Positions 8,122-8,606 of a stretch of 11,503 nt of DNA are shown in pieces. The notes beneath the pieces are model-generated. The model had not been told where the DNA came from. It did no database searches and saw only the letters and a program-made list of their open reading frames with translations. Both the position numbers and the translations under genes were made by a program. Every line of letters begins with the position of its first letter. The stretch's first letter is position 1. This stretch comes from a virus, in the UHGV virus genome UHGV-1556036; one strand, written 5' to 3'.

Positions 8122-8137
8122 TTTTTCCTTTCCCCAT

Positions 8138-8161
8138 GCCGGGTTATCGCCCGGCTTTTTC
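8138..8161 (+). terminator. Intrinsic terminator after the capsid gene
   Basis: Hairpin GCCGGG / CCCGGC with loop TTATC, followed by TTTTT. Confidence 0.7.
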
Positions 8162-8175
8162 AGGAGTCATTAATT

Positions 8176-8568
8176 ATGGCAAAGACTATCCTTGCTCCGT
8201 CACTGAGTGAGCGGGTTTATTCAGGTACGCATGGTAATGAGTCGGTGGCAGAAGGTGTGTTTACAGTGAATGCTGCCGAACAGGAAACCGTTATTAATCT
8301 TCTCTCACTGCCGACTGGCGTTCGCATTAATGGGATCCAACTGATTTCAAAAGGTGGTCTTGGTGGTACGGCGACCGTCAGCGTTAAATCTGGCAAGCAT
8401 GAGCTCATTGGTGACAGTGGTGCAGTAACTGCCAGCTTTGCTAAATATGTGCCAGTGGAGCCGTACACCACACAGAGTGATGGAGAGCTGGTTACGGTCA
8501 CCATTAAGACAGCTGCTGCGACCGGTACCCTGAATGTTCTGCTGCGTTATACCGTGGTGGGATACTGA
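8176..8568 (+). CDS. 130-aa probable virion structural protein (possibly capsid decoration or accessory), beta-rich
   Basis: AGGAG RBS at 8162-8166. G/T/V/S-rich sequence suggests a beta-sandwich. Bracketed by intrinsic terminators on both sides. Function inferred only from context. Confidence 0.5.
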   Translation: MAKTILAPSLSERVYSGTHGNESVAEGVFTVNAAEQETVINLLSLPTGVRINGIQLISKGGLGGTATVSVKSGKHELIGDSGAVTASFAKYVPVEPYTTQSDGELVTVTIKTAAATGTLNVLLRYTVVGY

Positions 8569-8580
8569 TATAAACCTTCC

Positions 8581-8606
8581 GGCCCGCGTCATGCGGGCTT
8601 TTTTAT
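8581..8606 (+). terminator. Intrinsic terminator after the 130-aa gene
   Basis: Hairpin GCCCGC / GCGGGC with loop GTCAT, followed by TTTTTTAT. Confidence 0.7.

Follow-up and report, generated by a model that had tools for sequence, protein, structure and literature searches.

Gene order of the window

The stretch analysed here (the window) comprises 11,503 nucleotides of the viral genome UHGV-1556036 and carries, on the + strand at 8176-8568, a 130-aa open reading frame (ORF) that begins with an ATG at 8176 and ends with a TGA at 8566-8568. In megablast comparisons the window was 99.9% identical to Escherichia phage PhiR5_2, 93.5% identical to Shigella phage POCJ13 (Sepvirinae) and ~90% identical to scores of Stx2a-converting phages, and by this likeness it is the head module of a short-tailed lambdoid phage of the 933W/phi24B type (a Sepvirinae podophage). 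The phage differs from phi24B in its TerS variant, and while phi24B is an Stx phage, no stx gene is annotated in the region of the PhiR5_2 record that was fetched. Genes were assigned using Pfam and PHROGs, in the following order:

268-735, + strand: Rz spanin gene (Pfam/PHROGs)
1037-1888, + strand: small terminase (TerS) gene (Pfam/PHROGs)
1869-3575, + strand: large terminase (TerL) gene (Pfam/PHROGs)
3575-5719, + strand: P22-type portal gene (Pfam/PHROGs)
5877-6884, + strand: gene for a 335-aa protein with no function assigned (phrog_479; no Pfam hit)
6907-8121, + strand: gene for the 404-aa major capsid protein (MCP), HK97-fold and GP4-like (PF13252, E=7.6e-88; phrog_334)
8176-8568, + strand: gene for the 130-aa protein, assigned below as a cementing capsid protein (CCP) (phrog_486, "virion structural protein", E=6e-57)
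8619-9080, + strand: 153-aa gene, the first after hairpin T2 (described below), no functional assignment (phrog_482)
downstream of the 153-aa gene, + strand: 207-aa virion protein gene, then an SU10-type adaptor gene, with two adaptors in the gene order (Pfam/PHROGs)

The MCP ORF stops at a TGA (8119-8121), and its product is 95% identical to the phi24B MCP, gp69, and matches the MCP of Ralstonia phage GP4 (8h89_A) with E=6.7e-40. Our comparisons with phi24B draw on a 2026 preprint, not peer-reviewed, that reports cryo-EM and virion proteomics (bioRxiv 10.64898/2026.04.10.717836); statements below on its proteome refer to the portion of its text and tables used here.

Several other features of the window and its relatives were noted. 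The 335-aa gene (5877-6884) occupies the scaffold position between portal and MCP; its phi24B ortholog, gp70, was found at a low level in virions (35 PSMs, compared to 1674 for MCP, in the batch data) and is left undiscussed in the preprint (bioRxiv 10.64898/2026.04.10.717836). The 153-aa gene (8619-9080) follows the cement gene in every lineage examined and has a conserved N-terminus, MSEKIAVVYIG in the window and MSEKIAIVYIG, MSDKISIVYIG or MSDKIAVVYIG in relatives. Its product, for which no PDB or Pfam relatives were found and whose phi24B ortholog (HM208303 36408-36896) is not among the phi24B virion proteome entries used (bioRxiv 10.64898/2026.04.10.717836), may be a non-virion assembly factor. 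On the minus strand, ORFs at 8217-8504, 8347-8592 and 8589-9149 run antisense to the cement and 153-aa genes, and the GenBank record of phi24B annotates a similar antisense ORF, vb_24B_32c. No minus-strand ORF of the cement region appears among the same proteome entries (bioRxiv 10.64898/2026.04.10.717836), and these ORFs are probably spurious.

Within the TerS gene, positions 1166-1347 hold [G/T]GCGCA seven times with A-runs after it, several of the copies lying ~12 nt apart (TRF periods 12 and 24), compared to ~1.5 copies expected and to 1-2 in TerS of phi24B and POCJ13; on the minus strand, the same stretch reads as a cluster of terminator-like palindromes. The repeat is a candidate pac/TerS recognition site, perhaps one peculiar to the terminase variant of this phage. 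At the other end of the window, the tail-fibre gene (beginning around 10274 and extending beyond the window) contains tandem repeats at 10706-10770 (a 21-nt unit x3) and 11313-11339 (CCGGACCAC x3) that may encode fibre-shaft repeats.

The 130-aa protein and the capsid cement family

Thr, Val and Gly make up 16, 16 and 15 of the 130 residues, respectively, in line with the glycine/threonine-rich, beta-type sequence described in the initial annotation, which had suggested a high-copy virion component such as a decoration protein and had named structure prediction and a Foldseek search as checks. The AlphaFold2 model, built with 14 homologs, is all-beta (pLDDT 84.6, pTM 0.81) and is predicted to consist of an N-terminal arm that includes His19, followed by a single beta-sandwich (Ig-like) domain. 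Low confidence is confined to residues 1-20, as would be expected of an arm that becomes ordered only on trimerisation (see below). With this model, Foldseek returned the cement chains of phages GP4 and Pam1 at a TM of 0.64; gpD, Dec and Soc were not among the structure matches listed, and the fold is neither gpD-type nor Soc-type nor the OB fold of Dec.

The search by sequence led to one of these proteins, that of Pam1, once a family profile was used. No Pfam family was found for the 130-aa protein, and phmmer against PDB sequences gave only a chance match (E=0.31) in a copy of the PDB from which the phi24B model is absent. An exhaustive profile search yielded 84 family clusters at 50% identity, nearly all of 125-140 aa, and in an alignment of 53 family sequences G17, G20 and G129 are invariant, and N21 and S23 nearly so. 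The 53-sequence profile matched the Pam1 cement protein (7eel_H, E=1.9e-5) and, marginally, that of Helicobacter phages KHP30/KHP40 (7dou, E=0.069). The window protein has His19, as do 13 of 14 close homologs, and the residue is unconserved across the wider cement family, so that anchoring details in its distant members, judging from the alignment, may differ.

The position of the gene is as constant as its predicted fold: it comes directly after that for MCP in each of the 60+ related loci as well as in distant lineages, the latter reached by single-protein scans of viral contigs (one of which, with query P0062, gave no match), and cement homologs occupy that position down to 34-42% identity.

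The closest characterised relative is gp67 of phi24B, to which the window ORF is 83% identical over its full length. In the proteome table of the preprint, in the entries used here, gp67 is the stop-to-stop ORF HM208303 35933-36382 and gp69 is 34711-35937 (bioRxiv 10.64898/2026.04.10.717836); the GenBank names of these ORFs are vb_24B_31 (129 aa) and vb_24B_29, respectively. [quoted passage not shown] The phi24B shell is T=9, with nine MCP and nine CCP per asymmetric unit and the two thus equimolar. gp67 gave 505 PSMs in the batch virion sample, the third-highest count for a phage protein after MCP (1674) and the 2811-aa gp47 (746), compared to 101 for the portal, among the proteome entries used (bioRxiv 10.64898/2026.04.10.717836). 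A literature search for 933W virion proteomics turned up no relevant paper.

Like the window gene, the gene for gp67 lies directly after that for MCP and is flanked by T1 and T2 hairpins, and His19 is kept in its product. The two proteins differ by 22 substitutions and one indel, all within residues 16-100. Outside that interval, at residues 1-15 and 101-130, the window protein does not differ from that of phi24B (L002 35996-36385); the adjacent MCPs are 95% identical. This pattern of substitution, as read from the aligned sequences, fits a conserved capsid/trimer interface with a faster-evolving remainder.

More distant cement proteins vary around the same theme. [quoted passage not shown] That of cyanophage Pam1 (gp6, 140 aa; PDB 7eel chain H) is ~20% identical and belongs to a T=7 capsid, whereas in KHP30/KHP40 gp16 (PDB 7dou) N- and C-terminal extensions contact the MCP differently. 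Lambda gpD is alike in function, being a small protein that stabilises the shell as trimers at threefold and quasi-threefold capsomer junctions, but its fold differs (a 'tulip' fold), and it is a functional analogue of the window cement protein and not a member of its family. A further putative capsid-binding element was noted in PhiR5_2 (L068), where DUF1737 is a stand-alone 73-aa ORF (5571-5792) followed by a separate 568-aa SASA-esterase ORF (5839-7545). In phi24B this domain is cut out of the esterase gp84 and decorates the hexon centres, so that in PhiR5_2 the module that binds the capsid may need no proteolytic release.

Because close orthology, remote sequence homology, fold and synteny all point to the same family, we assign the 130-aa ORF, in identity and in role, as a cementing (decoration) capsid protein with very high confidence. 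The early suggestion of a decoration protein is thereby borne out by an 83%-identical ortholog that is a trimer in cryo-EM and abundant among the virion proteome entries used, as well as by fold and synteny. The cement role itself is not new, since it is already known from phi24B gp67. By analogy with that ortholog (83% identity, His19, fold and synteny), three copies of the window protein would form a 'tulip' trimer, each N-arm adding a strand to its neighbour's beta-sandwich. The trimer would sit on the outer capsid surface at three-capsomer junctions, with His19 as its anchor, at nine copies per asymmetric unit in a T=9 shell, that is ~540 per virion and equimolar with MCP. Such trimers would reinforce a capsid that is devoid of covalent cross-links.

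Hairpins on either side of the cement gene

The cement gene is separated from its neighbours by gaps of 54 nt upstream (8122-8175) and 50 nt downstream (8569-8618). The first contains a pyrimidine tract (8122-8135), the stem-loop T1, TTTTT, the Shine-Dalgarno (SD) sequence AGGAG (8162-8166, + strand) and a 9-nt spacer before the ATG; the second contains the stem-loop T2, a run of six T up to 8604 and a weak GGGGA, after which the 153-aa gene begins with its ATG at 8619. An (A)AGGAG or GGAG precedes the cement gene in all relatives examined. No sigma-70-like site was found on the + strand near the gene, the window's only ones being at 1233, 2116 and 10580. T1, T2 and two further hairpins of this kind in the window are the following:

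60-100, + strand: further terminator-like hairpin upstream of the Rz gene (dG -21.6)
5736-5767, + strand: further terminator-like hairpin between the portal and 335-aa genes (dG -14.1)
8138-8160, + strand: T1, intrinsic-terminator-like hairpin between the MCP and cement genes (GCCGGGT-TATC-GCCCGGC at 8138-8155, TTTTT at 8156-8160)
8581-8604, + strand: T2, intrinsic-terminator-like hairpin after the cement gene (GGCCCGC-GTCAT-GCGGGCT at 8581-8599, six T at 8599-8604)

What the initial annotation had read at the nucleotide level therefore stands: a strong ribosome-binding site (AGGAG 9 nt before the ATG), hairpin-plus-T-run terminators on both sides (its coordinates, 8138-8161 and 8581-8606, being right within 1-2 nt), and no room for a promoter of the gene's own, given a 54-nt gap and no sigma-70-like + strand site nearby.

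T1 has seven pairs, six of them G-C, and a 4-nt loop (dG -13.9 kcal/mol), and T2 has eight pairs, again six of them G-C, and a 5-nt loop (dG -13.8 kcal/mol). They are two of the three best + strand sites in a consensus terminator scan, and both lack an upstream A-run, so that neither is bidirectional. A + strand scan with stricter criteria (6 or more pairs, 5 or more of them G-C, and a T-run) found six sites, compared to 0.35 +/- 0.59 in 100 dinucleotide shuffles, and the four strongest (60-92, 5736-5761, 8138-8155 and 8581-8599) are all intergenic. The hairpins at 5736-5767 and 60-100 both lie inside an operon that needs read-through. T1 and T2 were also considered as copies of one repeat, which was rejected since their stems are unrelated.

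The two hairpins differ in how far they can be followed. T1 is kept in the E. coli, Salmonella-like and L061 lineages (nine distinct variants, with 98.4% of cells paired), and in L061 both partners of two pairs have changed (C-G to G-C and G-C to A-U). Of 500 shuffles, no more than 6-10 did as well as the real sequences, and pairing collapses in all slid registers. T1 is absent from four more distant lineages with the same gene order (L063, L065, L066 and L067): in the last three, the MCP stop and cement start are 11-20 nt apart, and in L063 the gap is 55 nt yet has no G+C-rich hairpin. The E. coli and Salmonella-like groups share one T2 stem (GCCCGC/GCGGGC), while its loop and both flanks vary. 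For the distant lineages, where the nucleotide alignment is out of register at T2, folds of each sequence were used in place of a covariation count. At the T2 position, strong hairpins of unrelated sequence occur in L063 and L065, followed by seven or eight T, and L061, L066 and L067 have unrelated hairpins with no T-run. These comparisons suggest that T1 and T2 are under selection, and the stem-loop after the MCP-cement pair looks like an older and more general feature than T1.

Expression of the cement gene in the late operon

In PhiR5_2, a gene for a Q-like antiterminator (phrog_753, E=3e-68) lies after ninH and ahead of a long series of late genes that all point the same way, and strong + strand terminator-like sites occur after Q (three), before the holin gene and between R and Rz, as well as after the portal, MCP and CCP genes. 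Because equivalent sites recur in this way, the hairpins flanking the cement gene belong to an operon-wide series and are not a special bracket around it. The 'insulation' of the gene by its terminators, as first proposed, is thus not supported, and T1 is in any case missing from four lineages. RNA polymerase modified by a lambda-type Q reads past downstream intrinsic terminators. Late genes of Stx phages are expressed via Q-dependent antitermination from PR', and Term-seq data are available for E. coli Sakai, a strain with related Stx phages (PMC7547250; GSE143631). The SDs of the head genes are graded: the 335-aa gene has GGAG, the MCP gene AAGGAG and the cement gene AGGAG, and the starts of the low-copy genes for terminase, portal and adaptors are weak or overlap, which suggests that ribosome-binding-site strength tracks the demand for the product.

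We propose that the cement gene, having no promoter of its own, would be translated from its own strong SD on a polycistronic late mRNA made by Q-antiterminated RNA polymerase that passes the intrinsic terminators; by analogy with lambda-type Q, read-through of T1 and T2 by the modified polymerase is rather probable. As their likeliest roles, the hairpins may stop polymerase unmodified by Q, leaving the head genes silent in the lysogen, and, once transcribed through, may as 3' hairpins slow decay of the capsid-gene segment of the mRNA. MCP and cement protein would owe their high output mainly to the strength of their ribosome-binding sites, and stepwise termination at the hairpins would not set the copy number of the cement protein. 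As a whole, this explanation (a cement protein, Q read-through and an operon-wide series of hairpins) is, in our view, well founded, and any one specific function of the hairpins is a tentative assignment of rather low probability. Neither stoichiometric attenuation nor a stabilising role suits the hairpin that follows the low-copy portal gene.

Four other accounts of the hairpins and of the gene were weighed. The one that fares best, possible though doubtful, is that the hairpins act post-transcriptionally, their stems blocking 3'-to-5' exonucleases after endonuclease cleavage so that MCP and MCP-CCP segments live longer. The T2 position is conserved with unrelated stems, and L061, L066 and L067 retain the stem-loop without a T-run, a persistence that gives a hint of some function in the RNA itself, such as blocking decay or marking a processing site, besides or replacing termination. 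The invariance of the T2 stem, against a variable loop and flanks, and the survival of T1 pairing through two double-sided changes are consistent with it. On the other hand, most lineages retain T-runs, which a pure decay barrier would not need, and similar hairpins occur after the low-copy portal gene and within the lysis cassette, where the benefit is not obvious. It is improbable that the hairpin after the MCP-cement pair is chiefly an RNA decay barrier or processing mark that raises shell-protein output from the Q-antiterminated mRNA; if true, it would be a post-transcriptional stoichiometry device of a kind not described for lambdoid late operons.

Stepped attenuation, as put forward in the initial annotation, would have the hairpins act as partly efficient terminators during lytic growth, with the transcript stepping down after MCP and again after the cement gene; we consider it unlikely. 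T1 and T2 do have canonical terminator anatomy, a hairpin recurs at the T2 position in distant lineages (in two of them with long T-runs), and T2 divides two ~540-copy genes from genes whose products are present at 12 copies or are undetected in virions, as far as the proteome entries used extend. In phages that lack antitermination, moreover, terminators after major capsid genes, such as Tphi of T7, attenuate transcription and set output. However, a Q-like antiterminator heads the operon. A terminator that follows the 12-copy portal gene and precedes the high-copy genes for the 335-aa protein and MCP is in the wrong order for attenuation, since the genes most needed would get the least transcript, and with sites also upstream of the lysis and packaging genes an attenuating series would starve the capsid genes. 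Moreover, MCP and cement protein are equimolar (1:1), so a step down at T1 between them would be purposeless; T1 is missing in four lineages; and in three lineages the hairpin at the T2 position has no T-run. Searching the literature for terminators that follow genes for capsid or decoration proteins yielded nothing usable.

Coupling of cement translation to that of MCP at 1:1, through pairing of the pyrimidine tract (8122-8135) with the cement SD around T1, is very improbable. The 1:1 stoichiometry makes such coupling attractive, UUCCU and AGGAG form a duplex outside the hairpin in the minimum free energy fold of 8122-8175, and nested pairings are alike in folds of several relatives. The duplexes, however, amount to -3.0 to -4.6 kcal/mol, which 44%-88% of genome-drawn controls equal in five lineages, and SD sequestration was rejected because these energies are no better than those of random segments or shuffles.

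Finally, that the cement gene is a moron or accessory (lysogenic-conversion) gene lodged between head genes with transcription signals of its own, as a small ORF with non-coding gaps and terminators on both sides and mostly 'hypothetical' database copies might suggest, had been judged less likely in the initial annotation and is effectively refuted by the lack of a + strand promoter near it (the 54-nt gap being filled by hairpin, T-run and SD), by its universal and not sporadic presence directly after MCP in every lineage examined, and by its ortholog being a stoichiometric capsid component with a fold of the phage cement type.

The finding is an ordinary one, of use for annotation and as a small clue to how hairpins punctuate late operons that depend on Q. 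In E. coli and Shigella prophages, Stx2a phages among them, hundreds of nearly identical proteins carry the label "hypothetical protein" and can be named as capsid cement protein. In a Q-antiterminated late operon, terminator-like hairpins that flank a gene do not amount to gene-specific insulation or attenuation, and the position-conserved hairpin after the capsid/cement pair offers a modest lead on late-gene balance in lambdoid podophages.
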